IMG/VR virus record: IMGVR_UViG_3300037360_000100
Span: 1-50,558 of that record
Reading direction: 5' to 3' (one strand)
Length of the DNA: 50,558 nt
DNA from: a virus
Lineage: Duplodnaviria > Caudoviricetes
Shown here: piece by piece, positions 2,577 to 24,811 of the stretch
Layout of the letters: each line of letters opens with the position of its first letter
How positions within the stretch are numbered: position 1 is the first letter of the stretch
The notes under the pieces: model-generated
The model's database searches: none
What the model saw: the letters and a program-made list of their open reading frames with translations, nothing else
What the model was told of the DNA's origin: nothing
Program-made: the position numbers and the translations under genes

Positions 2577-3458
2577 TCAGTAGCGCTTAGCTTCGATCTC
2601 GTGGTACCAATCGGGCCCGTGACTATGTCCCTCGGTGATGATCTTCTCTACTCTAAATTGACCTTGAATTTGCCTGGAGTCAACAACTACCAGTCGGCCG
2701 CAAGTCAGGCCTGGAATCATAAGGGTCTTGGCCTTCAGCACGCCGTTCCCATCTACGTTCGGGCTGCCAATCAAACCGGTGCCGGACGTAAGTTTGATGG
2801 CCTTTTGCGCCAGGGCCGTGTTCAAGTCCGTAAATTGCACCACACCGTCCTGAATGCTCCACTCAAGGTTTGCCGATCGGCAAATGTCGTTCAGCGCCAT
2901 GGCCGCGGAACCGCTCAGCACCAGCCCGCGCGTGTAGACGGTCGCGTTGCCCTGCAACTGCAGGGTGGACGCCACGCTGGCCAAGTTGCCGTTGCCGAGG
3001 CCAAGGGCCTTGACGGCGGCTGCGAGGGCCGTGCGCACCGGGGTTTTGTATCCGAACGCCTGTGAGATACGGGCGGTGCGGAAAGCCCGCTCCCCATCGC
3101 CCGATGTGATAGCTGTAATCCAATCGGGCCCGGTCAACTCGGAGTCAACCGTACGCAGATCCCCCAGAAAAATCAGGCTGGCGCCGTCCTCGGCGTACCC
3201 GGCCTCGAGACGCACGGAGACCGAGCCCTTGACGTTTGGACTGGTCTTACCCTTATGCTTGGCCTTCTTTCCGACGAGCTTGCCAGGGGCCAGTTCTTGA
3301 AGCTGGCCACGGTGGTTTTCGTCCAGGTTGTAGACCTCAATGAGAACCTTGTTTGGCTCAGGCTTGATTGACTTTTCGACCCTGAAATGGATCGCGAACG
3401 CGTCAACCTGAAGGGTTGAAACGGTCAAGGCCCAGCGGCGGTCGAAAAGGGCGCCCAT
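2577..3458 (-). CDS. Baseplate hub protein
   Basis: PN...IEVYNL, LEAGY, IF.GD, DGE, WSIQDG, TGLIGSP, G.S.G.DW motifs of myophage hub proteins. Confidence 0.82.
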   Translation of the reverse strand: MGALFDRRWALTVSTLQVDAFAIHFRVEKSIKPEPNKVLIEVYNLDENHRGQLQELAPGKLVGKKAKHKGKTSPNVKGSVSVRLEAGYAEDGASLIFLGDLRTVDSELTGPDWITAITSGDGERAFRTARISQAFGYKTPVRTALAAAVKALGLGNGNLASVASTLQLQGNATVYTRGLVLSGSAAMALNDICRSANLEWSIQDGVVQFTDLNTALAQKAIKLTSGTGLIGSPNVDGNGVLKAKTLMIPGLTCGRLVVVDSRQIQGQFRVEKIITEGHSHGPDWYHEIEAKRY

Positions 3459-3728
3459 TTAGGCCAACGTAAGGTTTTTTGATTCGATGTAGTACCGCAG
3501 ACCAGAGCTGTGCTCTTCAACTTCAAAGCTGTGCCCATGGTCTCTGCCTATCACGCGTCCTTCTATTCCCGTGTTTGACTTCACACGCATATTTGGCTTC
3601 AACGAGGCCTCGTGTGTAGCCTGCGCCAGGTAACTAGCCCGTTCGGTTGTGTGCCCTCTAACGCCTGAGCCTTCTCCGCCGTCAAGGTTCAGAGCCCGCG
3701 CCGCAATTTGTGCTTCCTGTCCGTTCAT
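3459..3728 (-). CDS. Small protein with NLD|GGEGSGVRGHTT tag and SH3/KOW-like C-terminus (putative capsid cargo)
   Basis: Start corrected to ATG 3728 (AAGGA RBS, ATGA overlap). Shares an 18-residue motif with 4901..5251. Confidence 0.7.
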   Translation of the reverse strand: MNGQEAQIAARALNLDGGEGSGVRGHTTERASYLAQATHEASLKPNMRVKSNTGIEGRVIGRDHGHSFEVEEHSSGLRYYIESKNLTLA

Positions 3729-4054
3729 GGTGTTCCTTCCGGTATATATTCTAGCACGCACCGAAGGCCCTCGCCAAGCTCCAAAAACCCTGGCGGGTCG
3801 TTTGACGCGCCTGAGGTCATGCACCAGATCTCGCCCGTCGGTACGCCCGCGCGGCCGTGGTAGTAGTGCAGCAGGGGCCAGTTAACGACTAGCTTCATGG
3901 GACCGACCAGGACGTCGCCCGTGGTGTTGAGCAATCGGAGGTACCAGCGAGCTTCCCGCGTGCTCCAACGGAAGTCAAGCTGGAAGTCCGTGCCGTCGAG
4001 GTTAACCCGTTGGCTGTAGAAGGCTGTGCCGTCGGAAAGTGTAGGGATAATCAC
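3725..4054 (-). CDS. Small baseplate protein (DUF6983-like plug)
   Basis: YSQRVNLDG..F.L.FRWS.R...W pattern; between Dit-like and hub genes; GAGGAG RBS. Confidence 0.72.
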   Translation of the reverse strand: MIIPTLSDGTAFYSQRVNLDGTDFQLDFRWSTREARWYLRLLNTTGDVLVGPMKLVVNWPLLHYYHGRAGVPTGEIWCMTSGASNDPPGFLELGEGLRCVLEYIPEGTP

Positions 4055-4063
4055 GAGACTCCT

Positions 4064-4894
4064 CTAAACAGCGCCAAGGCCGCCGTAACGTACCAGCGCC
4101 AAGGCCGCCGTAACGTACGCGCGTTGCTGCTCCTCGGTCACGTTCGCTGTTACCTTGGGGGATTTCGTGCCAGCGCTTTTCTTCAGCTGACCTGATGGCT
4201 CCAAGGGCTTGGGCGCTGTGACCGTCAGGCTGTTCACGATACGAACCTCTTTGAGACTCAAACCGAAGGGTGCGCCCTCGCCGTCGTCCGTCTTGCGGGG
4301 TACCTGCAGGCCGTTGTCCGCGAAAACCATGTTGTCGTAGACTTTCAGGTCAGTGCTTACCGTCATTAGAACGCCAGTGTCATAGGCTTTCTCGAGAAGT
4401 GCAAAGGTCTCGTTGACACGGCTGGTCCAGTTTGGCCACGCCCAGACGTTTGCTTGCACGGTCGTTTGCGCCGCGGGGTCCTTTACACGCAAATTGGCCT
4501 GCGTGCCTTGGTCGAACCCAAGGGCGCCGGCCAGGGCGTTGAAACCCGCGCTCACCAGGGCGTGTGCATTCGCGCGCAGAGGACTGCCCGGCACGTCTAG
4601 CTTGGTAAGCTCGCTGTGCCAGCTCGATTCGGCCGGCACGCTAAGGCCGTGCAACCCCAGCTCGGGTGCAGCGCCCGCGCCCAGAAGGTTCTGCGGCAAG
4701 GGTGTGTCTGAAACGTACCCCTCAATTTGAAGGGTCTTGGGCTTACGCCGGACGTTGTCTGAAATGTCCGGGCCGTCCTCGACCGGAAACTCGGTGACTT
4801 CCGTGGCCATACCGTGGGTCTCGGTGTCGTAGACGTCAAGCTGGACCACGTCCGTGGTGCCGTCCTTGTTTTGCCAGAGAATATTGAGGGGCAT
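4064..4894 (-). CDS. Tail tube initiator / Dit-like baseplate protein
   Basis: ETH....VTEFPVEDG..ISDNV...P..L.IEG.VSD motif; downstream of tape measure. Confidence 0.8.
   Translation of the reverse strand: MPLNILWQNKDGTTDVVQLDVYDTETHGMATEVTEFPVEDGPDISDNVRRKPKTLQIEGYVSDTPLPQNLLGAGAAPELGLHGLSVPAESSWHSELTKLDVPGSPLRANAHALVSAGFNALAGALGFDQGTQANLRVKDPAAQTTVQANVWAWPNWTSRVNETFALLEKAYDTGVLMTVSTDLKVYDNMVFADNGLQVPRKTDDGEGAPFGLSLKEVRIVNSLTVTAPKPLEPSGQLKKSAGTKSPKVTANVTEEQQRAYVTAALALVRYGGLGAV
4069..4118. repeat. Exact 25-bp tandem duplication
   Basis: cagcgccaaggccgccgtaacgtac at 4069-4093 and 4094-4118. Confidence 0.95.
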
Positions 4895-4900
4895 TAGACC

Positions 4901-5251
4901 CTACACGAAAACGCTGTGCTTATTGGCCAAGGCGCGCCGTCGGCTCTCATGTTCGCCGTGCGCTTCATTGACCATGCTTGAGCGCCAGCTTTCTGCACGC
5001 GACTGTGCGCTCTTGTCCTTGCCCGCCGCGGCTTTCAGCTCGTCGGCTTTTGCGTTAACTGCAGCGATCTTGGAATCGCGCTCCGATTCTGACTTTGCTT
5101 TACCTTTAGCGTAAGCCGCTAGAGCTTTCTCCCGAGCGGCCGCCAGCCCGCCTGACTTTTCTGTTGTGTGTCCTTTGACACCAGAGCCTTCCCCGCCGTC
5201 TAAGTTCAGGGCGTGAAACGCTAGATCGATTTCTGCTTGATTTTTGAACAT
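4901..5251 (-). CDS. Small Lys/Ala-rich protein with NLD|GGEGSGVKGHTT tag (putative capsid cargo)
   Basis: 116 aa inserted between tape measure and Dit-like genes; motif shared with 3459..3728. Confidence 0.72.
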   Translation of the reverse strand: MFKNQAEIDLAFHALNLDGGEGSGVKGHTTEKSGGLAAAREKALAAYAKGKAKSESERDSKIAAVNAKADELKAAAGKDKSAQSRAESWRSSMVNEAHGEHESRRRALANKHSVFV

Positions 5252-5255
5252 GTTC

Positions 5256-6851
5256 TTACTCTACCGCCGGTTCAAGGGCGTAAATGTCAGCTCTGTTGCC
5301 TGCGCTCTTTTGTCGGGCCCTTTCGACCGCGGACCCCACGGCTTTAGCCTGCGCGTCGGTCGAGCCGGGCATTAGGCTTATGGTCGTAGTTGACTTGTCC
5401 GTAAAGTACTGTGGCTGGCTCAGGTAACTGGGCATGTTGGTGGCTGCTGTTGCTACGCCCATACCCGGTCCGAGCTGCACCGCTTTACCAGCGCCTGAGG
5501 CTTGGTCTGCTTCCGCTTGCGCATTGTCCGCACGTGCCTTGGCGGCCGCGCCGCGAATTCGGTCAAAGTCTGACCCGTTGGCTTCGAACTGCGCCGCCAG
5601 CTCTGCGTCGGCTACGCCATATTCCGCGTCACGTTGGGCCGTAATCTTGGCAACCATCTTGTCGCCTGCGTCTGAGCCAGCAATCCCGGCCATAGCACGG
5701 GCCGGTAGAATGGCCAGCATCTTGGCGGCGTAAGCGATCCACGAGCCCAGGCGTTCAAACTGGCTAACAAGCCACGCAATCGCGGCCGCACCGGCACTTC
5801 CGGCGAACGTAGCCAGACCATCTTTGAAGAGCTGCCAGCTGGCCGTCATGGCCTGGACGTCCTCAACGAACGCCTTGGCCGCGCCCGGGCCAAAGAAGTG
5901 ATCAATCAGAGTACCGGAAAGGCTCTCATCACCCTGAAACAGGCCCATGAGATCTTCAGCCACGAGGGCCAGCAGAATGAACCCGGCAGTCGAAAGGGCC
6001 AGCTTTGCCAGCATGGGCCCGAACATGGTGGCAATGGCACGAAGGCCGCCAACCAGGACAGCAACAAATCCAGCCATGCCGATCCGGCCTAGGTCCAACT
6101 CCGAGCGCATTTCCGTGATTTTGTGGATCACGGCCGTGGCTTTATCGGTCAGCCACGTGAATGCAGGGACCAGTTTCTCTGTAATCATGACAGAGAACGA
6201 CCGCCAGCTCATCTGCAGGCGTACGCTGGCTTCGTGGTACTTGTCCGCGGCTTGGATGTACTCGCCCGTGAAACCGCCTCCAAGCTTTTCGACTTCTTCG
6301 CGCAGCTCGCGGATACCGGCCTCGCCCTTCTTCATGAGGGGCAGCAACTGCGCGCCGCCGCGGCCGAAGATTTTCATAGCCGTGGCGGTCTGTTCGGCTG
6401 GGTCTTTAATGTCCCCAATCGCGCCTGCGACCTCGATGAAAGCTTCCGTGGTCTCTTTTTTAGCTAGTTCTTTCTGGTCCAGACCCAGCTTAGCGTACGC
6501 GGCACCCGCGCCCTGTGCACCGGCGCCTGAGGCGAACATGCTGCGCTGCAGACGCATCAAGCCCATACTGAGGGCATCAACCGGTACCTCGCTGGCCTCG
6601 GCTGCGAATTGGAGACTTTGAAGCTTTTCGGCCGTGGTGCCCGCAATGATTGCGGCGTGATTCAGTTGTAACGCGCCCTCAATGGTCTTCTCGACAAACT
6701 CTTTGACCTCGTACGCGGCGAACGCTTCCCCGACGCTGCGCCCTAGGTGGCGCAGACTTTCGATCATATGCCCGACGCCCGCTTCACCCTTGTTAAGTTC
6801 AGCGTGGTCAATTTCGTACCCGAAGCTGGCGAGAATTTCCCTTAAAGCCAC
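5256..6851 (-). CDS. Tail tape measure protein
   Basis: MALREILASFG start, Ala/Gly-rich helical body, IFGRGG..LLP motif, hydrophobic middle; follows the chaperone. Confidence 0.88.
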   Translation of the reverse strand: MALREILASFGYEIDHAELNKGEAGVGHMIESLRHLGRSVGEAFAAYEVKEFVEKTIEGALQLNHAAIIAGTTAEKLQSLQFAAEASEVPVDALSMGLMRLQRSMFASGAGAQGAGAAYAKLGLDQKELAKKETTEAFIEVAGAIGDIKDPAEQTATAMKIFGRGGAQLLPLMKKGEAGIRELREEVEKLGGGFTGEYIQAADKYHEASVRLQMSWRSFSVMITEKLVPAFTWLTDKATAVIHKITEMRSELDLGRIGMAGFVAVLVGGLRAIATMFGPMLAKLALSTAGFILLALVAEDLMGLFQGDESLSGTLIDHFFGPGAAKAFVEDVQAMTASWQLFKDGLATFAGSAGAAAIAWLVSQFERLGSWIAYAAKMLAILPARAMAGIAGSDAGDKMVAKITAQRDAEYGVADAELAAQFEANGSDFDRIRGAAAKARADNAQAEADQASGAGKAVQLGPGMGVATAATNMPSYLSQPQYFTDKSTTTISLMPGSTDAQAKAVGSAVERARQKSAGNRADIYALEPAVE

Positions 6852-7940: not shown

Positions 7941-9308
7941 TTACACCAACACCGTAACGTTGACCGGGTCAACGAAGTTAATTGCGCCTGCGAGCATGAA
8001 GGTCACAGACACATCGGGGAAGTTTCTGGCGGCCTTGTCTGCGGCGGAAACGTCGGCCACAGCCGGGACGGTCACAACCGGAACAGGGTCCGAGGCAATC
8101 AGGCCGTTTTTGATGCCCTGCAGGTTTACGATCCGCAGAGGACCGACGATCGCGCGCTGGACGCCCGCGTCCGTGTAAGGGATCTTGCCGGGGGCTGCTG
8201 CCAGCATCTGGCCGACGATTGCACGCTGCGCGGTCGCGTACCACCAGTCGAGCCCGCGAACGGTATCCGCATACTCGCCGGAAACGGCCTTACCGCCTCC
8301 AAGCACGCGCGCGTCCGTGTCAACCGTCTGGTAGTAGGACACGTTCTTATTCGCCAGGTTGTTGACTTGGCTGGTCGTGAGCTGGTCGCTTGGAATCGCG
8401 CCCGAGACGACCGTGTACTGCCAGTTGTCTGAGCCCGGGGTCTGAGTAAGGTGCACACCGAGGCAACCAGCGGCGAGGGACCCGCTCAGGTTGAGCTCTT
8501 GGTTCCAGAACAGCACTGTTCGGTTGTAGCTGGAGGCCTTCAGTATGTCCGCAACGTCAGAACCGTCTGAGCTGTAGGTCGAGGCAATCACGGCCGTGTC
8601 AGCGCTTTGCGCGACGAACAGGGCGCGCTTGTTGGCCTCAACCCAAGTTGCTGTTGCAACGATCTCGGATTTGCTGAAGCTGTCAATTGCGAGCCCGTAC
8701 CAGCCGGGGTTTGCAGCGTTGACGGCTGCGAGGTCCGTTTCAATACCGGGGTTCGCGGTGTCATCCGACACGGTTAGCCCCGCGGTCATGCCCTTAAACT
8801 CTGCGATAACGCCCGCGGTTTGCGTGCAGGTAACGGCTGTGCCGGACGTGCCCGAGGCGACCACGCCACCCGGTGCGGCTGTGTTGATTGCCGAAGCAAT
8901 GCCCGTGCAGATGGCTGCCAGGTTGTCAGCGACCGTGTAGGTCCAAGTCTTAGAACCGGCCGTGCCAGCAACTGTACCGCCGTACACGTACCCGATGGTC
9001 GTGTTCGTAGGGGTCAGTGTGATCGTTTGTGTTGGCTTGAGTCCACGCTTGCCTACAACTACGCTAGGAGGGCAGGGACTCTGAGATTTGAAAGCCGAGA
9101 CCAGCTTGTACGCGGCGTCGTTGGCCGTGAAGCCGTCCGCGAGCATATCTGATGGTCGATTGTAGGTCCTCTGAACGTCTGGGCCCCAAACGGCAACGAC
9201 GGCGCTCGAAAGCGCGGCCATTACCAGCGGGGTGCCGAAGTTGGCCTTGCTTATGCCCGCCGATTGTAGCGTAATAACGATATTTACGAGGTCACCTAGA
9301 GATGCCAT
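7941..9308 (-). CDS. Tail sheath protein (DUF3383-like)
   Basis: FG.PL, PGS.NW, SGEY.D.VRG.DW, KIPYTD.G, LAGAI motifs; indicates a contractile tail. Confidence 0.9.
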   Translation of the reverse strand: MASLGDLVNIVITLQSAGISKANFGTPLVMAALSSAVVAVWGPDVQRTYNRPSDMLADGFTANDAAYKLVSAFKSQSPCPPSVVVGKRGLKPTQTITLTPTNTTIGYVYGGTVAGTAGSKTWTYTVADNLAAICTGIASAINTAAPGGVVASGTSGTAVTCTQTAGVIAEFKGMTAGLTVSDDTANPGIETDLAAVNAANPGWYGLAIDSFSKSEIVATATWVEANKRALFVAQSADTAVIASTYSSDGSDVADILKASSYNRTVLFWNQELNLSGSLAAGCLGVHLTQTPGSDNWQYTVVSGAIPSDQLTTSQVNNLANKNVSYYQTVDTDARVLGGGKAVSGEYADTVRGLDWWYATAQRAIVGQMLAAAPGKIPYTDAGVQRAIVGPLRIVNLQGIKNGLIASDPVPVVTVPAVADVSAADKAARNFPDVSVTFMLAGAINFVDPVNVTVLV

Positions 9309-11353: not shown

Positions 11354-12445
11354 TTAGGTGGTCGCTTGTGACATGTCCACATAAACCATTGCGGGTTCAC
11401 GATAGATTTTCACTGCGCCGACTAGCGAGCGGCAGGGTATGACGTAGCTCATGCCCTCGACCTGCGCGGGGAAAGTCTCGAAATCCATAGGATTTACGGA
11501 CTCCAAAATGTCCCGGTTCCTGCTGTAGCAGATGATCCGGTCCGTGTTCCCGCCTGTGCCTGCGTTGTCGAGGTAGATCCACTGGTCAACCTCGGTAATG
11601 TAGGGGTTATTGTCCAGGAAATACTTCAGTACGGTCACGGGGCTGGCTGAGCTCATCTTGGTCGTTGCGGCCAAGTTGTAGAGGAAAGTGGACAGCAACA
11701 TTGTCTTGGGCGCGAAGATGGTCTTGGTGTTGTAGTTGACCGCTTGCGCAATCAGAGCCAAGTCACCGGCCATTTGCTCTGGGGTCGTTGCAACCGCTCG
11801 CCAAGGGTGCATGGCTGAGTCAATGGTGTTCGTGCCGTCGTACAGCACGGTAGCGCCGGTTCCGACGTTCGGGTGGTTCACGAAACCGCCCAAGTTCCCG
11901 GTCGTCTGGATATCGCCAGTCAGTTTGCCGGTATCGTCGCGCGTCTGTAGGACGCCCGTGCGAGTGACCTCGTCAACGTCGCGCGCGAGTGTGTCGCGAG
12001 CCGCTTCGGCTTTCATCGACGGAATGTCCATTTGCAGCCGCGCCGCCAGACGTAGCTCGTCGATTTCCCAGCCGTAAGACCCTTCAAGCGAGTAGACGTA
12101 GCCTATGCGCTCCTTGGTCTTGATGTTGTCAACGCGCGGGAGGGGCCCTTTGCTCTTGCCGTTCTGCAGACGGCTTTGGCCGGCTGTGTCGCGGGCGTAG
12201 TAGATATACGGGCCGGTAAGCGCGGGAATGTCCGTCGCCTTGGGAATGAAGGTCGCGCACCGGTTTTCCGGATACATTCGCTTCATGATCTTGCTTCGGA
12301 CCGTCTGAATTTGGCGCAGTGTGAACAAGGTGGCAGCACCTAGATCGTCCGCGTCAATTCGTTGCTGCGAGCCCGAAGTACCAAGCATTTCAGCGAGGCG
12401 CATTGCCTCAAAGTTGCCGTCAAGTCTGGAATCTGAAAAGAACAT
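11354..12445 (-). CDS. Major capsid protein (DUF2184-like, HK97 fold)
   Basis: YP......IP, LPRVD, YGW.I.EL..A, K..AAR, GF.NHPN, P.T.LL, TVL.YF..NNP, G.V.IY.. motifs; follows the decoration gene. Confidence 0.9.
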   Translation of the reverse strand: MFFSDSRLDGNFEAMRLAEMLGTSGSQQRIDADDLGAATLFTLRQIQTVRSKIMKRMYPENRCATFIPKATDIPALTGPYIYYARDTAGQSRLQNGKSKGPLPRVDNIKTKERIGYVYSLEGSYGWEIDELRLAARLQMDIPSMKAEAARDTLARDVDEVTRTGVLQTRDDTGKLTGDIQTTGNLGGFVNHPNVGTGATVLYDGTNTIDSAMHPWRAVATTPEQMAGDLALIAQAVNYNTKTIFAPKTMLLSTFLYNLAATTKMSSASPVTVLKYFLDNNPYITEVDQWIYLDNAGTGGNTDRIICYSRNRDILESVNPMDFETFPAQVEGMSYVIPCRSLVGAVKIYREPAMVYVDMSQATT

Positions 12446-13041: not shown

Positions 13042-14355
13042 TTATTTTCCCTTGCTCATTGCGAGCGGAGTCTTGTGTTGGTTGGCGCGAGCTTCCTCGG
13101 CATCCTTCTCGTCCTTGCGGGCCGCTTCGTCCAGGCTGTCCAGGTTGACGCCCGCGAAAGCATTCGCGAAGTTCGAGATTGTCTTGGACGCGCTGGCCGT
13201 TTCCAGGCAGGCGTCGAATCGAGCCGAGACGTAGTCGTCAGACTTGCCGTCCAGCTTCGCGCTGGGGTGTACTTTAGCAATCACCAGGGCTTGGATTTCG
13301 CGCTCGGTCTTGCCGTCGAATTTCGCGTCGGCTCCGAGGACCTTTGCGGCCGAAACCACAAGGGCAACGCGGTTCTCGACTGCGGAATCAATGCGCGCGG
13401 GGTCAAGTGCGGCTTTGAGGTCCGTGGTCAACTTGGTGACATCCGCGGTGCTGGAATCAAGCTTGGCTTGAAGCGTATCGCATTCGGTCGTGGCTGTTTT
13501 CAATGCAACAGCGTTCCCATCTAGGCGGGCCTGCATTGCATTGACGTGGACCTCGGAACCGAATTCGAATTCCTGGCCGTCAAATCTAGTTTTCATTCTT
13601 GCTGGTTGCTCCAAAATGGGTTCGGCGGTTTGCACGTCTATTGTTGCATACAAGCCGTCCAGGCGCAAGGCCACATCACCACCGGCGCGCCCCCAGCCCC
13701 TCGGGCCCATGCCCACATGGTTGTAGATAATTCCACGCTGGATGCAATCGAACTTTTCGTCCTGGTAGACGCCTGAACGCATTTCTGTGTGACACTTGTA
13801 CCCACAGGACAGCTCTTGGCCCTCGCCTGAATCCACCTTGGCAAGGCCGTCCGAGCGCTTGATTATCAGTTCACCGGACACGAGTCGCACCCCATCGCCT
13901 TTTGGTGTGCCCGATATGTGACCGATCTCATGTTCCCGAATGTTGGCCGGCGTGACCATGGCCGGGTGACCCCAGACCACAGGCGCGTCCCGCAGGCTAT
14001 CGAGGCTGTCTTGGGCGAAGACCTCTTCGGGCAACCGGAGCTCGCGCCGGGTTGTGCCGTCCGGGTTCGTGTACTTGAACACGCCCGTGCGCGTGAGGTT
14101 TGCGGGCATGCGCGCGAAGCCCTGAGACGTCCGAGAAACCTTGGCGCCGGCGAGCCGACTGAAGTCATAACGCTGCTCGGGCTCGCCGTAGGACTCCGCG
14201 CCGCCGTCGAAACGAAGGCCCTCAGCATTGCCGCCGTCGCCTCGCGCCATGCGTTCAGCGATCGCGACGGCTTGCTCTTGTGGGTGGCCCGCTTTAATTA
14301 GCTCGGCCACATTTTCGGATATGACCTCAGCCGATTTTCCTGTCTTCAGAGGCAT
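13042..14355 (-). CDS. DUF2213 prohead protease / scaffold fusion
   Basis: TRTGVF.Y, ELR..EEVF..DSL, ELSCGY, QR.I.YNHV, GRAG..V.LRLD, then a coiled-coil scaffold with SDDYV.ARFD. Confidence 0.88.
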   Translation of the reverse strand: MPLKTGKSAEVISENVAELIKAGHPQEQAVAIAERMARGDGGNAEGLRFDGGAESYGEPEQRYDFSRLAGAKVSRTSQGFARMPANLTRTGVFKYTNPDGTTRRELRLPEEVFAQDSLDSLRDAPVVWGHPAMVTPANIREHEIGHISGTPKGDGVRLVSGELIIKRSDGLAKVDSGEGQELSCGYKCHTEMRSGVYQDEKFDCIQRGIIYNHVGMGPRGWGRAGGDVALRLDGLYATIDVQTAEPILEQPARMKTRFDGQEFEFGSEVHVNAMQARLDGNAVALKTATTECDTLQAKLDSSTADVTKLTTDLKAALDPARIDSAVENRVALVVSAAKVLGADAKFDGKTEREIQALVIAKVHPSAKLDGKSDDYVSARFDACLETASASKTISNFANAFAGVNLDSLDEAARKDEKDAEEARANQHKTPLAMSKGK

Positions 14356-14386: not shown

Positions 14387-15589
14387 TCAACCTGCGGTCA
14401 GGAGATCGCTAACGACGTGCGCGCACGTCTGCCACGAGTTTTGGTGGCTGTTGGATGTGTAGTCGATCGTGGTGCTGAAGGTGCCGGTACCGATCGCGGC
14501 GACTGCTGCCGCTATCTCACCCGACCAGTCGGCGATTGCCTGCTCATAGGTGAGGCCGTTGCACCGGACCCGCCCTGCCTCGACTAGCGCATATTGCGCG
14601 ACCCCAAACGTCCCGTCGTCTGCGTAGTTATAGATTTGCTCGTGGTGCTTGTTGTGGGTCGCAAGCATGTACAGGTCTAAATACCCGCACCCCTGATAAC
14701 ACTCGGGCCACACCTGCTCGGCGTCTCCAAGCGCGCCTGTAGCTGGGCGCATGTAGATCGGCTGAGTACCGGCAACCGAATAGCTCTTGGCGATACGCGT
14801 ATCTAGCGCGGCCATCCAAGTTGTTGACCATCCTCCTCCACTAATCCCAACGGCTGCATAGTCCGTAATGCGGCCGAGTGACGCCGCGTAATTAAGACAC
14901 AGCACGGGCATGGTCAAAAAGAATCGGTGAAAGCTCCCAATCGACCGATAGTGCGGCGTGAATTGCGCCAGCCACTCGTGAGCCTCAAGAGTGTACGGAA
15001 ACGGCACGTCACCGGTATCCGCGTGCCAATTGGGCTCAATGCCGACAACACCCGCGTCATAGGCAAACGCTGGCATGGGGTAGACAAATACATCAAATCC
15101 CGCCGCCAATAGCGACGAAATCATGCGCCACTCGCCCGAGCCGATGTTAGTCGGCGCCGCAGTGTGATCGTCGTCTAGCCCGATCGAAAGGTGCCCCGGG
15201 CAGTAGATTACCGCGCGGTTTTTGACCGTGGTTGAAGGGATTAGATGCCAAGCAAATAGGTGCACCTGAATCGCTAGCCCGGTTGTGCTGGTCGCCGGAT
15301 ATGCATACGAGAGTAGGTCCGTACGCCTAAGATTCGTTAACGCCGTCAGCGGGCACGTAACATTACGCGTAACGGTCGAGAACCAATTTGGGATGCCAGC
15401 AAAGCCGAAAATGTAGTAAATCAGCATCGCTCGCCACGCCACAACGTCAGCGGCCGTGCGAACTTTGCGCACGCTATCATCGACCATCCGGCGAGTGTTA
15501 TTCCAGACCGGGGGAGTATTCGGCACCCATCCGGATAGCGTCACACCTTCCCATGGCTGAGGCTGGCGGCGGGACAATAGGTCCAGCAT
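14387..15589 (-). CDS. Alpha/beta-hydrolase fold esterase-like protein
   Basis: IYCPGH, L..AGFDV, nucleophile elbow G-I-S-G-G-G, AALD.RI, C-terminal His (SHQ). Confidence 0.72.
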   Translation of the reverse strand: MLDLLSRRQPQPWEGVTLSGWVPNTPPVWNNTRRMVDDSVRKVRTAADVVAWRAMLIYYIFGFAGIPNWFSTVTRNVTCPLTALTNLRRTDLLSYAYPATSTTGLAIQVHLFAWHLIPSTTVKNRAVIYCPGHLSIGLDDDHTAAPTNIGSGEWRMISSLLAAGFDVFVYPMPAFAYDAGVVGIEPNWHADTGDVPFPYTLEAHEWLAQFTPHYRSIGSFHRFFLTMPVLCLNYAASLGRITDYAAVGISGGGWSTTWMAALDTRIAKSYSVAGTQPIYMRPATGALGDAEQVWPECYQGCGYLDLYMLATHNKHHEQIYNYADDGTFGVAQYALVEAGRVRCNGLTYEQAIADWSGEIAAAVAAIGTGTFSTTIDYTSNSHQNSWQTCAHVVSDLLTAG

Positions 15590-15590
15590 G

Positions 15591-16889
15591 CTAGATCATT
15601 GACGCGAGCTGGGTGTAGAGTTGCTGCGCCTCCAATAGTGGGTTAGCCGTAGCGGGCAATTTAACCCCGAACCGGCGCACCTGCGACGTGCCGGCAACCT
15701 CAAGCCGGTCCACCACGATACTCAACGCAGCACCCGCCATACTTGCGGACGTTCCGGTGGAATCAATCGCATATAACTTACCGTCCGTGTGCAGGCAAAA
15801 CACCGCTGTCTTGCGCGCGCTGGCTGCGACGGTCACCTGCTGGTACGGTATGTTGGTCCCGTCGTATTGGTAGGCGGCCAGCACGGTTCCGGACGGGTAT
15901 ACGATTTGACACACTCGGCTTAGATTGTTCGAGTTTTTTAGATTCATCACGGCTCCACTTGGTGCCGCCGGCGTAGTGATTTGTATCCCGAAAATGAATG
16001 TCCCGAGAACCCCGCCAAATGCGCCCCATTTCGGCGCGCTCACTTGGCTTAGCATTGCCGCCCCGACACAGCGAAGCACGCTCGTGGCCGTCAACACATC
16101 AATTTCAGCGACGACCGTCCCGCCCGACGTGGTGAGCACTGACGTGCCCTCGCGCGAGGTCCAGCTGGTGACGGCCGCTGGCGTGCCTGCAACACCATGG
16201 TCCGCATCCCAGATTCCACCGGTAGTCCACGTGCCTGCCTGAGGGTAGTCCGGATTGACCGCGATTGCCTCAAAATAGTTGGTGATCCAGCTACATCTAG
16301 CGGTACAGGCTACGGCGGCCGGGCGTGTGATTTTGATCGTGAATCCATTTGTTGATGCGATTGCCGTGATAGTGGCGCCCGCCAGCGGCGTGCCAACAAG
16401 TCTCGATAAATCTGGATTTATCGCACCGAAACTGCAAAACACTACGCCCGCTGTGTTGGTCGCCACGGTCAGGTCTAGGTCAAGATCGATCGACCCGAGC
16501 AAAGAAGGGAGCGCTGTCTCCCAGATGACAGCTCTGATTGAGACGACAGCCTGATAGATTTCGCTGCTTGCCAACCCCGCAGAGGCAAGTGACACAGCGA
16601 GCAGAGTTGTCGACGCATCCGTATTGATAACTACGTCGGATGCGGTTGACCCATTGGGCTGTATTTTGGGCAGCTGAATCGAATCATTAGCGCCCCACGC
16701 GTATTCGGTAGCACTCGTAGCTACGAGGGCTTGCCCGGCGACCGGCGCGGCCGAAGCCACGCCAGAAACCTCACCCGTCGAATTGCGCAGGGCTGACGCA
16801 CCGCCTTGGAGCACCACTTGCACAGGAGTTTGCGCCCTTCCGTCTTGCAGCGCCGTTGCTTCTGCCACGAGTGTAGGTGTATCAGTCAT
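15591..16889 (-). CDS. Putative virion appendage / fibre protein
   Basis: 432 aa, Thr/Ala/Ser-rich and beta-rich; GQALVA.S..EYAW linker; WDA..G....V.SW motif typical of LamG-like C-terminal modules. Confidence 0.5.
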   Translation of the reverse strand: MTDTPTLVAEATALQDGRAQTPVQVVLQGGASALRNSTGEVSGVASAAPVAGQALVATSATEYAWGANDSIQLPKIQPNGSTASDVVINTDASTTLLAVSLASAGLASSEIYQAVVSIRAVIWETALPSLLGSIDLDLDLTVATNTAGVVFCSFGAINPDLSRLVGTPLAGATITAIASTNGFTIKITRPAAVACTARCSWITNYFEAIAVNPDYPQAGTWTTGGIWDADHGVAGTPAAVTSWTSREGTSVLTTSGGTVVAEIDVLTATSVLRCVGAAMLSQVSAPKWGAFGGVLGTFIFGIQITTPAAPSGAVMNLKNSNNLSRVCQIVYPSGTVLAAYQYDGTNIPYQQVTVAASARKTAVFCLHTDGKLYAIDSTGTSASMAGAALSIVVDRLEVAGTSQVRRFGVKLPATANPLLEAQQLYTQLASMI

Positions 16890-16985
16890 GCTGTTCCAAG
16901 TCTAGCAGACGGCCGATCAAAAAGAAAGCCGTCTTTTTGGTCTAAATCGAAAGCTGAGACTCGGCCACGTGTCCGGGCTCTGGAT

Positions 16986-17171
16986 TCATTGCTTGGCCGC
17001 TGTCATTAGGCCCTTGGCGTTGATGCCTGGTAGTGACGCCAAAATCTTGGCGACGATTTCCGCCCAGCGCCAGCCGGTCTCGCTCGCCACGACCTGCATG
17101 ATCGCAGTCGCGTAGGTGATTGCCAGAATGTCGTTAACTGGATTGCTGAGCCAAGTGATAATTGTGTTCAT
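16986..17171 (-). CDS. Small membrane protein, holin-like
   Basis: 61 aa, hydrophobic, basic C-terminus; ATGA-coupled to the peptidase gene. Confidence 0.45.
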   Translation of the reverse strand: MNTIITWLSNPVNDILAITYATAIMQVVASETGWRWAEIVAKILASLPGINAKGLMTAAKQ

Positions 17172-18151: not shown

Positions 18152-18360
18152 TTTCGCACCGTGGCCTGAACGCCTGCGGCTTGCAGTTGTGCCAGGGCGG
18201 CTACTTGCTCGGCCTGCGAACCGTAGCAAAAGGCTATCGTTTGGCCATTGACGGGAACATCCAAACAGTACGCAAAGCACTGGCCGGACTGGGCGGAAGG
18301 TGTACCAAAAATGCCGCAACCAACTAAGGCTAGGGCGACCAAAGAGCTTAGGAACTTCAT
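18148..18360 (-). CDS. Small lipoprotein
   Basis: MKFLSSLVALALVG|C lipobox; GTGA-coupled to the peptidase. Confidence 0.7.
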   Translation of the reverse strand: MKFLSSLVALALVGCGIFGTPSAQSGQCFAYCLDVPVNGQTIAFCYGSQAEQVAALAQLQAAGVQATVRK

Positions 18361-18392
18361 GCCCTAAGGTTAGCACCGGCTAACCTTAGGGC
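18361..18392. promoter_or_regulatory. Perfect 14-bp inverted repeat containing an extended -10 (TGCTAACCT) and abutting the lipoprotein ATG
   Basis: gccctaaggttagc-accg-gctaaccttagggc. Confidence 0.7.
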
Positions 18393-19024: not shown

Positions 19025-21811
19025 TCAATGTTTTCCTGTTTTCTCATAGGCTTTCAATTCCTTGGACTTAGGACCGAGCTCAAATTTGAGCCCTATTTCG
19101 TTGCCTACAGGCCTAGATTCGAGCCAAGCCTTGCCTAGCTTGGTCGTCTGGCCCTCGCGGTGCGCAAATGGCGTACTGGTCTGCACACGAGACAGATCGT
19201 GCATCGTTTTCGCTTTGGACAGATCTACCTTTAGTCCTTTCTCTTGCATAAAACGTGTCATTTCTTGCTTGTAGCCCTCGAACTTCGAAGGATCACGCAA
19301 ACTGAAACCGAGACGCGGCCACTGGTACTGACCAGTCCAGGCTGCATCCGTGGTTATGCGAGAAACCACACCCGTCTGCTGGTAGGCTCTGAGTTGCTCA
19401 TCAAAAAGCTTAGAACCGAGCCCCTTGCCTTGAATTGACTCATGCAGCATCATTACGTCGTGGTTCACCTCGATTTCCTTGTGTCCGGACTCCCACGATG
19501 TATTGAACTGTCGCTTAAGGTGTAACAGTACGTTTCCGGCCTGGTCCTTGACCTTGGCCTCTAGGTGTATGCTGTCCGACGTTGTCGGGCGTGCAAGGTA
19601 TTCCACTGTGTGCGCTCCTGGTATGTCCAGCTTGTGCACATTAAGCAGGCCCTGTATGTGCTCCGCGTCCAAGTGGTGACCGAAGATGCCTTGTGCGGCT
19701 GCCTGAAACTTGTCGTGGCTGGTGTAGTTGATACCGTTCGCGCTCATGCGCTCGCCTAATCCGGCGCCTTCAGTGAACTGGCCCTTTTCGTCGCGCGGAT
19801 GCTTTGACTCATCGAAATCCCCGCCGTCAAATTCCTGTGTTGGCAAATCGTCGGTCGCGTCGTCGAATTCCTCTAGGACTGGTATTGCAATGCAGCGACA
19901 CTGGAAATCTTGGCCAGGGTGATTTGTCGCGCCAGTGCGCTCACACGTAACCGGCGGATCGTCCCATCGGTGCACGGTGTTGTTCAAGATCTCGTGGTTT
20001 GGGTAGCCTCGGTCCTTGGGGTCGTTTCGCACGCTACCGTCGTTCGACGTGCTCCAGCGGTATCGGTCAACGCCTGCAGCCGTTTGTGCAGCCTGGTTCA
20101 TGCGCCCATTGAGTTTTAGGGTCTGGTCTCTGGCGATTAACTCGGCACGGGCTCGGGTTACCCCGAAAGTGTCCTCGAGGGCCGTGGCCATTTCCTCGAC
20201 CCGTGTCCCGTCGTAGTCCTCCAGGAGGTCGCCAATTCTGTCGCGCATCTCGTCGGATAGGTTCGTTATCAAATCGACGTTCTCGTTGCGCCAGGCTGCG
20301 ATTTCAGAGCCTAGAAATAGGTCTGTGTTCGCGAGCCCGGGCATGTACCTGGGCACGTCGTGCTCCACGTGCGAGCGCACAGTTCCGCCGACCTGGCTCA
20401 GGGGTACCCGATCCGCTGCTTCGCGCAACGGGGTCGTAATGCCCTGTAGGACCTTGCTGGCAAGGGCATCAAGACGGGCACCGTCTGCGCGTTGATAGCT
20501 TCCGCCGGGCTCGAAAATGTCTCGCGTTGCGTTAATTCCTAGCTCGTTGTGCTCGTGTGTAATGCGAAACCTACCAGGATTTTCCTTGTCCTTTTTGAAG
20601 TGCGCTCCTTGGTAGTCAAAGCCCGGGTGCTCGGTTGCGTGCTCGCTGATAGCAGCATACATGCGCTCTTTGGCTTCGCCCTCACGCGTTAGCTGGTCCG
20701 CACTCTTGAACTCATATGTATCGCGCTCTCCAGGCTTGTCCGTGAATCTGTGCGTCACACCCGCTGGCGTGGTCCACTCATACGCGCGAGGCTTAAGCGG
20801 CTTCCCCGAAGCGCTCACGCCGGCTCGGCTGACATCGCCTCCACCCGTCCAGCGACCATTCTCGTCTCGTGGCTCGTCGGGGTCAAAGGCGTCCTTCCGT
20901 GCGCCTTCTTCTACGTGTACCAAGGTCACAAGACCGTGCCTAGGGTGCTGTATATGCTCTATTCTGGTTATTTGCAGCTTCGCACTTCGTGGGACTAGTA
21001 CATCACGCTCAAAGCCGTGACCTCCCGGGAGCGGCATACCTCTGAGATTGCCTTTGAGCAGAACCGGGACGGTACCCTCTTTCTTAACTAGTGTGCCGGC
21101 TGCGTAGTGCGCAGCCGTTGCGGCTGAAGTTGAGAATGAGCTTGTTGACTGTAGTGCAAAGTTTTCTCCCACTTTCAGCTTGAGTGCATCTTCACTTTTT
21201 AGCTGCATTCCACGGAATAGCGTAATTGGCTGAGCGCCCTTTGACTCGCGCTCGACCATTTCTCGCACCACTTTTGAGTGTTCTGTGTCCTTGCCTTCAG
21301 CTTCTGCCTTAACTATTGTGTGGTAGTTGTGCAGGTACTGATAAGCCGCGTCCTTCTCAGCCGGAGTTACTTTAGCGTTAATTCGAGCCAGCGCCTGCTC
21401 TCTAAGCGCCTCGTGCTCCAACGTGCCTTGGTCTACGTCCAGTGCTTCACTCTCTTTTGTGCTTTCATAAATGCTTGACTTAACCTCTGGCTGAAATACA
21501 CCGAAAAGATCATTGCTTCCAGCCCACGGATCTGGTGCATTCAGAAAGTCGCTTGAACTGCTGCCAGTCCAGCGTCCCTGCTCGTCCCTCGGCTCGTCCG
21601 GGTCGAACCCGTCGTGCTTTGCCGCAAGCTCCGCCAGTTTCGGGTACGTCTCAGCAATAGCGCCCATGACGATAGTCTTGAACTCTGCTGCCCATCCACG
21701 CATTGCTCCGAGGTAGAGTCGCTCGGCCTCGTTCGGTGGCTTCGGGCGCTTGGCAAGCTTGCGCCCAAAGAGCTTTTTCCTTACCTCGGCCAGCCTAGAG
21801 TGCGTGATCAA
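19025..21811 (-). CDS. MuF / SPP1 gp7-like minor head protein fused to ADP-ribosyltransferase-like, unknown and GNAT-like cassettes
   Basis: MuF core: RAELIARDQT.K.N, Y.WST..D..VR..H, W.DPP, HPGQDFQCRC.A.P. ART: LFRG, SFSTS, FERDVLVPR. GNAT: QGKGLGSKL...W.RLGF. Confidence 0.88.
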   Translation of the reverse strand: MITHSRLAEVRKKLFGRKLAKRPKPPNEAERLYLGAMRGWAAEFKTIVMGAIAETYPKLAELAAKHDGFDPDEPRDEQGRWTGSSSSDFLNAPDPWAGSNDLFGVFQPEVKSSIYESTKESEALDVDQGTLEHEALREQALARINAKVTPAEKDAAYQYLHNYHTIVKAEAEGKDTEHSKVVREMVERESKGAQPITLFRGMQLKSEDALKLKVGENFALQSTSSFSTSAATAAHYAAGTLVKKEGTVPVLLKGNLRGMPLPGGHGFERDVLVPRSAKLQITRIEHIQHPRHGLVTLVHVEEGARKDAFDPDEPRDENGRWTGGGDVSRAGVSASGKPLKPRAYEWTTPAGVTHRFTDKPGERDTYEFKSADQLTREGEAKERMYAAISEHATEHPGFDYQGAHFKKDKENPGRFRITHEHNELGINATRDIFEPGGSYQRADGARLDALASKVLQGITTPLREAADRVPLSQVGGTVRSHVEHDVPRYMPGLANTDLFLGSEIAAWRNENVDLITNLSDEMRDRIGDLLEDYDGTRVEEMATALEDTFGVTRARAELIARDQTLKLNGRMNQAAQTAAGVDRYRWSTSNDGSVRNDPKDRGYPNHEILNNTVHRWDDPPVTCERTGATNHPGQDFQCRCIAIPVLEEFDDATDDLPTQEFDGGDFDESKHPRDEKGQFTEGAGLGERMSANGINYTSHDKFQAAAQGIFGHHLDAEHIQGLLNVHKLDIPGAHTVEYLARPTTSDSIHLEAKVKDQAGNVLLHLKRQFNTSWESGHKEIEVNHDVMMLHESIQGKGLGSKLFDEQLRAYQQTGVVSRITTDAAWTGQYQWPRLGFSLRDPSKFEGYKQEMTRFMQEKGLKVDLSKAKTMHDLSRVQTSTPFAHREGQTTKLGKAWLESRPVGNEIGLKFELGPKSKELKAYEKTGKH

Positions 21812-22868: not shown

Positions 22869-22896
22869 TCGAAATCGTCGGGTGCGTCGTTCAACT

Positions 22897-24417
22897 TCAT
22901 GTTCTTTTCTCTGCAGGTTTGGTGCCAAACGCCGGGTTTTCGGAGACCTCGGGCTGTGTAATCCCTCTCACGTCCTTGGGCTCGGGTGTGTTGCCTACGT
23001 CGCCTGCTTCGATCGAGCCGGGCGCGGAGCCCTCGGCTAGGTTGCGCATAACGTCCGCCAAAAGTTTCTCCCTGGTCTTAAGGTCCACCTTCCACGCGTC
23101 GGACCACGTGTCTTGGTCCGTGAAGCGACTGATGGCTACTTCCTCGGGCGTGAGAACCTGCGCGTCAATGTAGGTCTTGTCCGCCGTAGCCATTGTGCTG
23201 ATTTCTTGGGCGCGCTCCAAGGCAGAAGGCGTGTACAGGGGCTCGAACGTGACCACAACATCGGCGCAAAAGGCCTCTAAGCCCTCGACCTTCAAGACGA
23301 TTTTGGCCAGTTCTGCAATCCGCGGCCCGACCACGTTGATCTGATAGCTCTTCGTTTTATCCCAGAACCACCTCAGTGAAGCATCGCCCGTGCTGAAACC
23401 GGCTGGGTCTTGGCCAAAAAGGACCATCATTGGGATCTGCGCAGTCGCTGAAATGCGGAATGCAGCCTGTGAGAGCAGGTCTGGAATCCCCGCGAGCTGC
23501 ATCGGCTGGCGTTCGAAAGTCTCATCCTTATCTATCACAATCGCGCGCAGCATTGACCGATAAAAGTCAATCATTTGCAAGCGGGTCGTAAGCGCCTCGC
23601 CCTGGCCAGCCATGAGCTTGTCCGCAAAACCGTTCACTGTGTAGACGGCCTGAGGGCCCTCCACAATCAGAAGCTCCACGCCCTTCCACAGGGTCTCATA
23701 CATGCGCAGCTGGGGCCAGCACTTGTCCAAGATGCTGTAGTCGTATGACGCGTTCATGTTTTTTTCGCGCTGGGCCGTTCTCGCACCCGGCCAGCCAATC
23801 ATTCTAGATTCGTGAATCTCGTATGCGCCTTGGGACACACCCACCCACGTTTGCGAGAGCACGTACTTAGAGGGCTTGCCCGCCTTGGGCCCACTGTCGT
23901 ACCAGGTCATAGGCCACATAAATCGGCGGTCAACCACCTGAAGCCAGTCCAAGGACTTGGTCCGATCGAAGTCCAAGGGCTCGGACGCGTTTTGGCCATC
24001 ATCGGCCCCGAGCACGGACCAGCCGCCGCCAAACAGGCGACCCCAAACGCACCCAAGTAGCAGGTTCTCGCGCGCGTTTATTTCCTCGAACTTGCGTTCG
24101 ATTAGCTTGTCGGCTTTCTCGTTGCCCGTAGTGACCTTGTAGGGTAGACGGAATGCCTCATCAGCTTGCACGTCTATGATACGCGCAGCCAAGTCCGAGC
24201 CGTGATAGAGGTTGCTCAGGGATATGAGGTCAACAGGGGAATAGCCCCTGAACACACCATAGGAGGTCTTGTCACGCATGGTGCCCATGCCGGTGACGTC
24301 GTTTGACCACCCGACCCCAGGCCGCCCCGGGTTTGTTGAGTAGTTGCGCGTATCAAACCCCTGAAAGCCTGTGAGGCTGTCCAGGTGTGTGCTAACGGTT
24401 CCAAGGTATCCAGTCAT
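22897..24417 (-). CDS. Portal protein (DUF1073-like)
   Basis: W.N..TG.GT.RDK, LY....LA.RIID..A, WGRLFGG, IHESR, IP...LFGQ.P.G.STG, F.PL.TPS..E.A. Start set at ATG 24417 because a promoter lies at 24539-24566. Confidence 0.9.
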   Translation of the reverse strand: MTGYLGTVSTHLDSLTGFQGFDTRNYSTNPGRPGVGWSNDVTGMGTMRDKTSYGVFRGYSPVDLISLSNLYHGSDLAARIIDVQADEAFRLPYKVTTGNEKADKLIERKFEEINARENLLLGCVWGRLFGGGWSVLGADDGQNASEPLDFDRTKSLDWLQVVDRRFMWPMTWYDSGPKAGKPSKYVLSQTWVGVSQGAYEIHESRMIGWPGARTAQREKNMNASYDYSILDKCWPQLRMYETLWKGVELLIVEGPQAVYTVNGFADKLMAGQGEALTTRLQMIDFYRSMLRAIVIDKDETFERQPMQLAGIPDLLSQAAFRISATAQIPMMVLFGQDPAGFSTGDASLRWFWDKTKSYQINVVGPRIAELAKIVLKVEGLEAFCADVVVTFEPLYTPSALERAQEISTMATADKTYIDAQVLTPEEVAISRFTDQDTWSDAWKVDLKTREKLLADVMRNLAEGSAPGSIEAGDVGNTPEPKDVRGITQPEVSENPAFGTKPAEKRT

Positions 24418-24538
24418 ATTAGGTCGTGCGGCCGCCGGAAGTGTTTTAGCCGAGGTTACGTCCGGCCCTGAATTCGCCGGTTTGCTGGGCGGCGAACACT
24501 GGTCCGGAAAGGCTTGCTTGACGTAACGGCACGTCCTA

Positions 24539-24566
24539 AGTGTAGCGAACCTACGGCCTAAGTCAA
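24539..24566 (-). promoter_or_regulatory. Sigma70-type promoter upstream of the portal gene
   Basis: TTGACT-N16-TACACT. Confidence 0.55.
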
Positions 24567-24811
24567 GATAGGCATGGGTCAAACTCGATTCTAAACCATC
24601 CGACGTCAAGCATGGGTGGGTCGGGTGCGGCCGAACCATCAAGCATTTGCACTGGGCTTGCCTTGCCTGTGACCCATTCCCAGGGCCCGAACGTGCCCGC
24701 GTAGCGCGCAGGCAAGCGCATTAGAGGGAAACCGCACGCGAGATCGGCGCGCGTGGGCTGATACAGCTCGCCGATCGTCTGCCTGAATTCGATTACGTCT
24801 TGGAAGTTCAC
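24563..24811 (-). CDS. Hypothetical protein
   Basis: AAAGGA RBS, GTGA overlap with the upstream ORF. Confidence 0.55.
   Translation of the reverse strand: MNFQDVIEFRQTIGELYQPTRADLACGFPLMRLPARYAGTFGPWEWVTGKASPVQMLDGSAAPDPPMLDVGWFRIEFDPCLS

Follow-up and report, generated by a model that had tools for sequence, protein, structure and literature searches.

A shared N-terminal tag on two small tail-module genes of a Caudoviricetes phage as a candidate label for capsid-packaged proteins

Introduction

To our knowledge, the loading of non-structural proteins into the capsid by phages is known in only a few model systems, which are the capsid targeting sequence (CTS) of T4, Dar of P1, and N4. The T4 CTS is removed by gp21. 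In the encapsulins, short glycine-containing cargo-loading peptides are carried by unrelated cargo proteins, bind the shell protein, and load the cargo into an HK97-fold shell; they are usually located at the C-terminus, unlike the tag considered below, which is likewise a short glycine-containing peptide on unrelated cargo. In the accessible part of the T4 study (PMC3012670), the CTS is a short conserved leader on diverse small proteins, which directs their encapsidation into the scaffolding core and through which foreign proteins can be packaged. This paper concerns two small minus-strand genes in the tail module of the IMG/VR virus record IMGVR_UViG_3300037360_000100, open reading frames A and B (ORF A and ORF B), whose products share an N-terminal tag. 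The window, the whole stretch of DNA that was analysed, is the complete virus record of 50,558 bp with direct terminal repeats, in which the structural genes are encoded on the minus strand.

The T4 internal proteins (IPI, IPII, IPIII, and Alt), so far as the accessible source text describes them, likewise combine a conserved leader with diverse cargo, and their genes are accessory and variable among relatives. The first-pass annotation of the window had likened the leader of ORF A and ORF B to the targeting of these proteins. The likeness held for the architecture, a leader common to unrelated small proteins (38 proteins with 25 cargo clusters), but not for the sequence, as the T4 CTS and the window leader showed no sequence relationship when judged without alignment to a T4 sequence. 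The window phage also differs from T4 in its machinery. Its baseplate is E217/Pam3-like and its protease is of the DUF2213 type, and T4-like gp21-type machinery was not found among the ORFs scanned (structural genes were assigned by Pfam and PHROG family scans that covered roughly 30 of the window ORFs, not every ORF). Furthermore, the window motif was also located inside portal, MuF, and protease fusions of many unrelated phages, which the accessible part of the T4 study does not describe for the CTS (PMC3012670).

Two other systems are comparable. Polyvalent proteins (Iyer, Burroughs, Anand, de Souza, and Aravind 2017, PMC5512222) are proposed, in the accessible part of that paper, to be packaged in the head, injected, and proteolytically processed. 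The large proteins that carry the window motif have the hallmark polyvalent domains MuF, ADP-ribosyltransferase, RadC/JAB, NUDIX, topoisomerase IB, GNAT, and SprT/zincin, whereas ORF A (89 aa) and ORF B (116 aa) have a single small cargo each and are not multi-domain; the 12-residue motif is common to both groups. The motif is not described in the accessible text of PMC5512222, with its supplements outside coverage. The MuF polymorphic toxins (Jamet et al. 2017, PMC5576092) resemble the tagged proteins in having a conserved carrier and variable C-terminal modules in the head module, and differ from ORF A and ORF B in that the latter have no MuF domain. The text of PMC5576092 makes no mention of the motif, a linker, or a cleavage junction. 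Literal-string and keyword searches of the literature, with supplements and subscription journals outside coverage, returned only unrelated matches, and the tag motif is apparently undescribed.

The best reading of ORF A and ORF B was that of accessory cargo genes built from three parts: an amphipathic pre-helix of 16–18 aa ending in hydrophobic-Asp, an invariant 12-mer predicted to be disordered when alone, and a small cargo domain that is unrelated between the two. The tag may be a label for proteins packaged in the capsid, following a targeting logic like that of T4; judged from sequence, the chances of this were put at about even.

Shared N-terminal tag of ORF A and ORF B

The products of ORF A and ORF B shared the block ALNLDGGEGSGV[RK]GHTTE, in which 17 of 18 residues were identical, and direct comparison confirmed this claim of the first-pass annotation. 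The codons of the block differed by the same eight synonymous pairs that had been listed before and by one replacement, AGA/AAA (R/K). A BLASTP comparison (E = 7e-12, 21/33 identical) aligned only residues 2–34 of ORF A with residues 4–36 of ORF B. The C-termini fell into separate BLAST clusters and were unrelated, as had been stated. The pre-sequences were similar, as had also been claimed, but the segment before GG was 16 aa in ORF A and 18 aa in ORF B instead of 17–18 aa. In a six-frame scan of the window, the full motif occurred only in ORF A and ORF B; a looser ‘GG.GSG’ match at 24309–24326 was without the GH half.

ORF A (3459..3728, minus strand) encoded a protein of 89 aa composed of the tag and an orphan cargo domain, and started with the ATG at 3728, with a Shine-Dalgarno-like GGAAGGA upstream. 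The pre-sequence, MNGQEAQIAARALNLD (3681..3728, minus strand), was a 16-aa amphipathic helix ending in L-D, with residues 3–12 helical in the AlphaFold2 (AF2) model. The core motif, GGEGSGVRGHTT (3645..3680, minus strand), had 11 of 12 residues invariant in 19 sequences, and the R/K position varied. The cargo of 61 aa (3462..3644, minus strand) had a net charge of 0 and no family match, and its fold was predicted with low confidence. In the AF2 model, which was of low confidence overall, the C-terminus had a mean pLDDT of 49 and the N-terminal helix was the only element formed. Structure neighbours of the C-terminus in the ESM Atlas were YajC-like and KOW-containing clusters with TM values of 0.58–0.65 and feature scores below 0.9. 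These are weak leads to a small barrel, so that the SH3/KOW-like barrel previously assigned to this C-terminus was retained only tentatively.

ORF B (4901..5251, minus strand) encoded a protein of 116 aa composed of the tag and a helical-hairpin cargo, and had four full-length homologues (P0008–P0011) with identities of 55–83%. The pre-sequence, MFKNQAEIDLAFHALNLD (5198..5251, minus strand), was 18 aa long, with residues 5–16 helical in the AF2 model. The core motif, GGEGSGVKGHTT (5162..5197, minus strand), was predicted to be disordered, as residues 17–25 and 27–33 had pLDDT values below 50. The cargo of 86 aa (4904..5161, minus strand), with a net charge of +6, was modelled as a two-helix hairpin (helices 33–76 and 80–111) with pLDDT values above 90. 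A Foldseek comparison of the model with the BFVD viral structures gave no match at E <= 0.001.

Neither ORF A nor ORF B had a Pfam match at E <= 0.1, and hence neither had a MuF domain (PF04233). Pfam, PHROGs, and NCBIfam contained no family for ORF A or ORF B and no entry that covers the motif, the sole exception being a PHROG that weakly matched a part of ORF B other than the tag (E 0.084). The motif profile had no match among PDB sequences at E <= 10. In 50,697 phage records searched by tblastn, nothing meaningful matched either protein, and the low-complexity filter of this search may mask the motif.

A family of small proteins with unrelated cargo

Besides itself, ORF A had five database matches, which covered just 28–56% of the query and were centred on the leader. 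ORF B had 13 other matches, consisting of the four full-length homologues and nine leader-only proteins. In an alignment of 19 sequences, DGGEGSGV.GHTT was invariant and followed the consensus MNxxDAxIAxRALNL. When 1.84 billion representative proteins were searched with a profile, 61 matches at E <= 1e-3 were obtained. The 69 proteins collected were 38 small single-motif proteins, 30 larger or multi-copy proteins, and one outside the regular expression. The motif started at residue 17 in 29 of the 38 small proteins, and the cargo regions of at least 38 small tagged proteins formed 25 unrelated BLAST clusters. The leader therefore heads many otherwise unrelated small proteins. Seven genes on different contigs, compared at the DNA level, had 11–12 of 12 core residues identical in spite of 5–11 synonymous differences. 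These differences indicate that selection acts on the peptide, and the earlier claim of protein-level conservation without recent duplication held.

A secretion leader of the double-glycine type, which in bacteriocins is cleaved behind GG by an exporter with a C39 peptidase, would also present an N-terminal segment of 16–18 aa that ends in hydrophobic-x-GG. In double-glycine leader peptides, however, conservation is confined to the leader ending at GG, whereas the strongest conservation of the window tag lies after GG, where GEGSGV.GHTT is invariant. In addition, the motif is also internal in head proteins, with up to seven copies per protein, and no peptidase/ABC exporter was found among the window ORFs scanned. 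A secretion leader was regarded as extremely improbable.

The free-standing tagged genes were frequently adjacent to head genes. They directly followed the portal gene in L003, L022, and L015, were located two genes after the portal gene in L028, and followed a protease gene in L011. In the unrelated phage G002, one tagged gene was located between the MuF and DUF2213 protease genes.

L015 encoded three very basic tagged proteins of 63–102 aa (908–1099, 5437–5745, and 8947–9141), which started with M-GGPGSGIKGHRT. These ORFs had strong AGGAGGTG ribosome sites; one followed the portal gene and one followed an ORF ending in a MuF-like HPNC motif. The tiny basic proteins of L015 could be DNA-condensing internal proteins. 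Recoding of TGA in L015 was considered and rejected, as long ‘open’ frames appear in all six frames.

The 12-residue motif on head-interior proteins

The leader core GGEGSGV[KR]GHTT reads as the local form of a phage-wide motif, [KD]-GG-x-GSG-[IV]-[KR]-GH-x-T. The extended consensus of 143 unique instances was hydrophobic-x-[KD]-GG-[PVE]-GSG-[IV]-[KR]-GH-[TR]-T-x-[KR]. Thr at position 12 was present in 140 instances, K/R at position 8 in 128, I/V at position 7 in 118, K/D at position −1 in 114, and K/R at position +14 in 87.

From this composition, the glycine-rich block could be a loop that binds phosphate or nucleic acid and would tether the small proteins to packaged DNA or nucleotide. The block contains five Gly together with Ser, Lys/Arg, His, and Thr, is often followed by a basic stretch (the K/R at +14), and is disordered in the model when alone; it may also resemble kinase P-loops. 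Its retention across differing portal and protease families would fit a universal ligand such as DNA, and the three tagged proteins of L015 are very basic. However, the spacing differs from that of Walker A (GxxxxGK[ST]), with I/V between the last Gly and K/R and with G-H after it. There was also no NTPase family match, and the region is predicted to be disordered, whereas Walker A is part of an NTPase fold. A binding loop was considered very improbable.

A degenerate DNA pattern searched in IMG/VR found 47 loci with 53 ORFs, 49 of which were at least 130 aa long. One locus of the metagenome scan, L005, was rejected as spurious. Removal of seven near-duplicates left 46 ORFs, in which Pfam identified portal (8), MuF (5), XkdF protease (1), and DUF2213 (1) domains. 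The cargo-type domains in these ORFs were NUDIX, ADP-ribosyltransferase, topoisomerase IB, GNAT, and SprT, and an intein was also present. In the PHROG tally of carriers, one portal family was matched by eight of them and another portal family by two. No tail family was found among the motif carriers, either by Pfam in the 46 ORFs or among the 25 PHROG families listed.

The motif was placed between domains in these carriers. In five portal fusions, the portal domain ended at residues 405–451 and the motif at residues 463–573 was followed by C-terminal cargo, such as an ADP-ribosyltransferase at residues 773–868. In L009, the motif was preceded by the DUF2213 domain and followed by a helical, scaffold-like region, and L010 had two copies after the XkdF protease. 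The large profile matches contained 2–7 copies of GG-[PVE]-GSG-[IV]-[KR]-GH-x-T at the junctions of MuF, DRAT-like ADP-ribosyltransferase, RadC/JAB, NUDIX, topoisomerase IB, and DUF5661 domains. MuF polyvalent proteins had 3–7 copies. The motif thus marks the N-terminal edge of add-on modules on head-interior proteins, which are portal C-terminal extensions, MuF proteins, and prohead protease/scaffold proteins, and it also starts tiny free-standing proteins. Where it occurs suggests that the motif labels proteins located inside the capsid.

The same placement is also compatible with a motif that is a processing or junction site only, without any targeting role, in which case ORF A and ORF B would be former modules, now independent genes, in which the junction has been retained. 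The motif was present at every module boundary of polyvalent proteins, with seven copies in P0022, five in P0029, and three in P0040, and it separated the cargo from the portal, MuF, or protease domain, and DUF2213 from the scaffold-like region in L009. Fused and split forms coexisted: portal, motif, and cargo were joined in L013 and L020, whereas in L022 the M-x5-K-GG protein had a gene of its own behind the portal gene. HExxH motifs were seen in the sequence of P0022, and processing of such proteins by metallopeptidases was proposed in the accessible part of Iyer et al. (PMC5512222). However, free-standing M-GG proteins have nothing to be cut from, and 12 invariant residues are long for a cleavage site. 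The motif was also kept in phages whose proteases belong to different families (XkdF or DUF2213) and in records in which neither DUF2213 nor S78 was detected, and the stand-alone genes keep it under strong purifying selection. A pure junction site was therefore considered unlikely.

In 185,579 species genomes, a strict DNA pattern gave no match and a loose pattern gave 42 loci, of which about five (L056, L060, L070, L072, and L077) were credible by reading; the remaining loci were rejected as GC-rich non-coding frames. The motif is rare in cellular genomes. No cultured phage with the motif was found by tblastn with four motif-bearing proteins and one annotated region, the phage collection not having been scanned by pattern.

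Insertion of ORF A and ORF B in the structural operon

ORF B was flanked upstream by the tape measure protein gene (5256..6851, minus strand; PHROG tape-measure families, best E 8.6e-28) and downstream by a Dit-like tail protein gene (4064..4894, minus strand; PF21821, E 8.6e-24). ORF A was flanked upstream by a baseplate plug gene of the Pam3 gp18 type (3725..4054, minus strand; PF22479, E 1.4e-13) and downstream by a baseplate hub gene of the E217 gp41 type (2577..3458, minus strand; PF22759, E 2.7e-13; phrog_196, E 9e-57). Both genes were tightly coupled to their neighbours. The start of ORF A overlapped the stop of the plug gene by 4 nt (ATGA), and the gaps around ORF B were 4–6 nt.

The relative G001, a complete genome of 49,744 bp with terminal repeats, had most structural genes in common with the window at protein identities of 50–85%. 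In G001, the tape measure, Dit, plug, and hub genes were back to back with neither small gene between them. Since the four neighbours are contiguous in this complete relative, ORF A and ORF B are insertions, and the earlier statement that both genes interrupt a conserved baseplate gene order was upheld. The insertions were also marked by a lower GC content, which was 0.537 in ORF A and 0.558 in ORF B, compared with 0.59–0.61 in the neighbours and 0.583 in the genome.

Tagged genes occupied other positions in close relatives. In L003, whose terminase, portal, and MuF proteins were 93, 92, and 75% identical to those of the window, the portal gene was immediately followed by a tagged gene that encodes 145 aa. 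L007, with a hub protein 83% identical, carried a different tagged cargo immediately before its hub gene, together with a small companion ORF. The clade therefore uses at least three cassette slots: between portal and glycosyltransferase (L003), between tape measure and Dit (ORF B), and just upstream of the hub (ORF A and L007).

The positions of ORF A and ORF B could indicate tail or baseplate accessories, such as tail-lumen or hub-associated cargo, whose tag would dock them to the assembly of tape measure, Dit, plug, or hub. Both genes are located among the genes for these four proteins, the tagged gene of L007 is just upstream of the hub gene, and tagged genes of G002 and L021 are in neck or tail regions. 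However, no tail domain was fused to the motif in the carriers tallied above, and in the closest relative with a tagged gene, L003, that gene follows the portal gene. Position says little about accessory genes that were inserted, and a lower GC content also marks both genes as such. The tag is not specific to the tail module, as the tagged gene of L003 directly follows the portal gene, and its core is not private to the leader but occurs in portal, MuF, and protease fusions. Docking onto the tail was considered quite improbable.

L007 contained a duplicated 27-nt copy of the hub start upstream of the cassette (1040–1300 and 340–400), next to a remnant of the plug gene consisting of its last ~17 codons. 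The duplication and the remnant are likely a recombination scar of cassette movement between slots. The companion ORFs that follow the tagged gene in L003 (5323–5559, 78 aa) and L007 (394–720, 108 aa) were homologous, yet the tagged cargos of the two differ. Both companions contained GVEK.AFG...GLPMAKHR.GHELRCEVV, and neither the window nor G001 had a copy. The companion may be a partner such as an immunity or chaperone protein.

Candidate cleavage site in the clade of the window

In studied phages, the sites of prohead proteases are repeated, identical short sites in the scaffold and in the N-terminus of the capsid protein. The prohead protease gene of the window (13042..14355, minus strand; PF09979, phrog_530) encoded 437 aa, consisting of a DUF2213 head maturation protease and a scaffold-like C-terminal half. 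The protein contained six [RK][LF]DG sites, compared with 23 occurrences of hydrophobic-D-G over 15,832 aa of the proteome. Of the six, five were kept in a 45-sequence alignment reaching down to 35% identity, in which residues H130, S183, and H213 of the DUF2213 domain were invariant. The major capsid protein (11354..12445, minus strand; phrog_264) had the same type of site, RLDG, at residues 7–10 and a second site, RIDA, at residues 29–32. The R-hydrophobic-D-A near capsid residue 30 was conserved in 59 unique homologues from DUF2213 phages, with R29 in 55 and D31 in 58. Both leaders carried NLDG.

The [RK][LF]DG sites of the scaffold and the R-hydrophobic-D-A of the capsid protein look like undescribed maturation cleavage sites. 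By the resemblance of these sites to the leaders, the DUF2213 protease of this clade probably removes the pre-helix with a cut at LD|GG, and the LD|GG point marked in the first-pass annotation gains indirect support. A DUF2213 homologue, P0175, also had a Peptidase_S78 domain, and for this reason DUF2213 is only a candidate for the protease. A complex prediction of the DUF2213 protease/scaffold (45-row alignment) with residues 1–40 of ORF A (19-row alignment) gave a score of 0.00 without controls, and counts neither way.

Packaging as a proposed role of the tag

These comparisons directly support the common tag and the purifying selection on it, its modular spread and its occurrence on head carriers, and the origin of ORF A and ORF B as insertions. 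From these findings we infer packaging, the position of cleavage, and ejection. The tagged genes would be expressed late with the structural operon, and the tag would bring the cargo into the assembling procapsid. In the clade of the window, the DUF2213 prohead protease would then remove the pre-helix at LD|GG, so that the mature protein would start with GG. The cargo would leave with the DNA at infection.

Several observations weigh against this reading. Both window genes are located in the tail module, and at least two other tagged genes were located in tail or neck regions, after a tail fibre gene in L021 and before the sheath gene of G002 (8523–9101). The relative G001 had no match to the leader profile and no tagged gene, and the tag system is therefore dispensable. 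A targeting signal would be redundant in portal or MuF fusions, which suits a processing-site role better. Some tagged proteins had no pre-helix, and a model in which the helix targets and the motif is cut therefore cannot be general. With respect to cleavage, the position taken by R or K in the protease and capsid sites is N or K in the leader, which is a loose fit. The tag motif was absent from the 120 DUF2213 homologues of the window protease that were listed. In G002, an unrelated phage, no repeated hydrophobic-D-[GAS] sites were seen in the acidic scaffold region of the DUF2213 protein. This region gave no support to hydrophobic-D-G as a site at which DUF2213 cuts in general, and the proposal of cleavage was therefore limited to the clade of the window.

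A wider form of the packaging reading was also considered, in which GG-x-GSG-[IV]-[KR]-GH-x-T would be a general address label for capsid-riding proteins in many unrelated lineages of tailed phages, with a free N-terminal Gly-Gly as the working form. Three routes could expose Gly-Gly: loss of the initiator Met, as in the M-GG proteins of L015, clipping of the pre-sequence at LD|GG, and cuts of the polyprotein at the junctions. The label would dock to the head interior or to packaged DNA, and its docking target would be a conserved feature of the former or the DNA itself. This wider form was judged possible but rather doubtful. If it were true, any protein given the tag of ~13 residues would be loaded and delivered by such phages.

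With a short, portable, and widely conserved tag as a sequence handle, packaged effectors of metagenomic phages, be they toxins, enzymes, or anti-defence factors, could be located. Such a tag would account for the swapping of cargo genes between slots in structural operons, and would be a simple means of filling phage particles with proteins of choice in laboratory strains. For the module boundaries of polyvalent proteins, MuF proteins, and portal fusions, which lack an explanation, the motif suggests a role that can be tested.

Head module of the window

The large terminase gene was located at 26027–27535 (minus strand) and the portal gene at 22897..24642 (minus strand; PF06381, E 2.1e-55). 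The portal protein is a possible docking partner for the tag. The MuF-type minor head protein of 928 aa (19025..21811, minus strand; PF04233) is possibly a carrier or partner of the tag. The further structural genes on the minus strand of the window encoded neck, sheath, tube, chaperone, spike, and baseplate wedge proteins.

The MuF-type protein of the window (19025–21811) contained a second, distinct junction motif, FD..PRDE.G.[WF]T, in three copies (21566–21607, 20846–20887, and 19772–19816, minus strand), of which two were FDPDEPRDE.GRWT and one was FDESKHPRDEKGQFT. The copies parted an N-terminal segment, an ADP-ribosyltransferase-like region recognised by eye, the MuF domain, and a GNAT-like C-terminus. 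The MuF protein of L003 had an identical set of three copies. P0043 contained a GG..GSG motif and, eight residues on, a third glycine-rich motif. The MuF junction motif and the glycine-rich motif of P0043 may be functional equivalents of the tag motif.

Three large ORFs of 400, 432, and 402 aa were located between the MuF and protease genes (14387–18376, minus strand). The 400-aa ORF had a GISGG motif resembling a nucleophile elbow, and the 402-aa ORF had a weak peptidase PHROG match. The first two ORFs had no counterpart in G001, and the third matched elsewhere in G001 at 29% identity. The region looks like an accessory island within the head module.

A family-2 glycosyltransferase/TPR gene, with a weak, sub-threshold TPR match, was located at 21981–22928 (minus strand) of the window. 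The family-2 glycosyltransferase gene was kept between the portal and MuF genes in the window, in L003 (5559–6443), and in G001 (45441–46325). This position is unusual and hints at glycosylation of a virion component.

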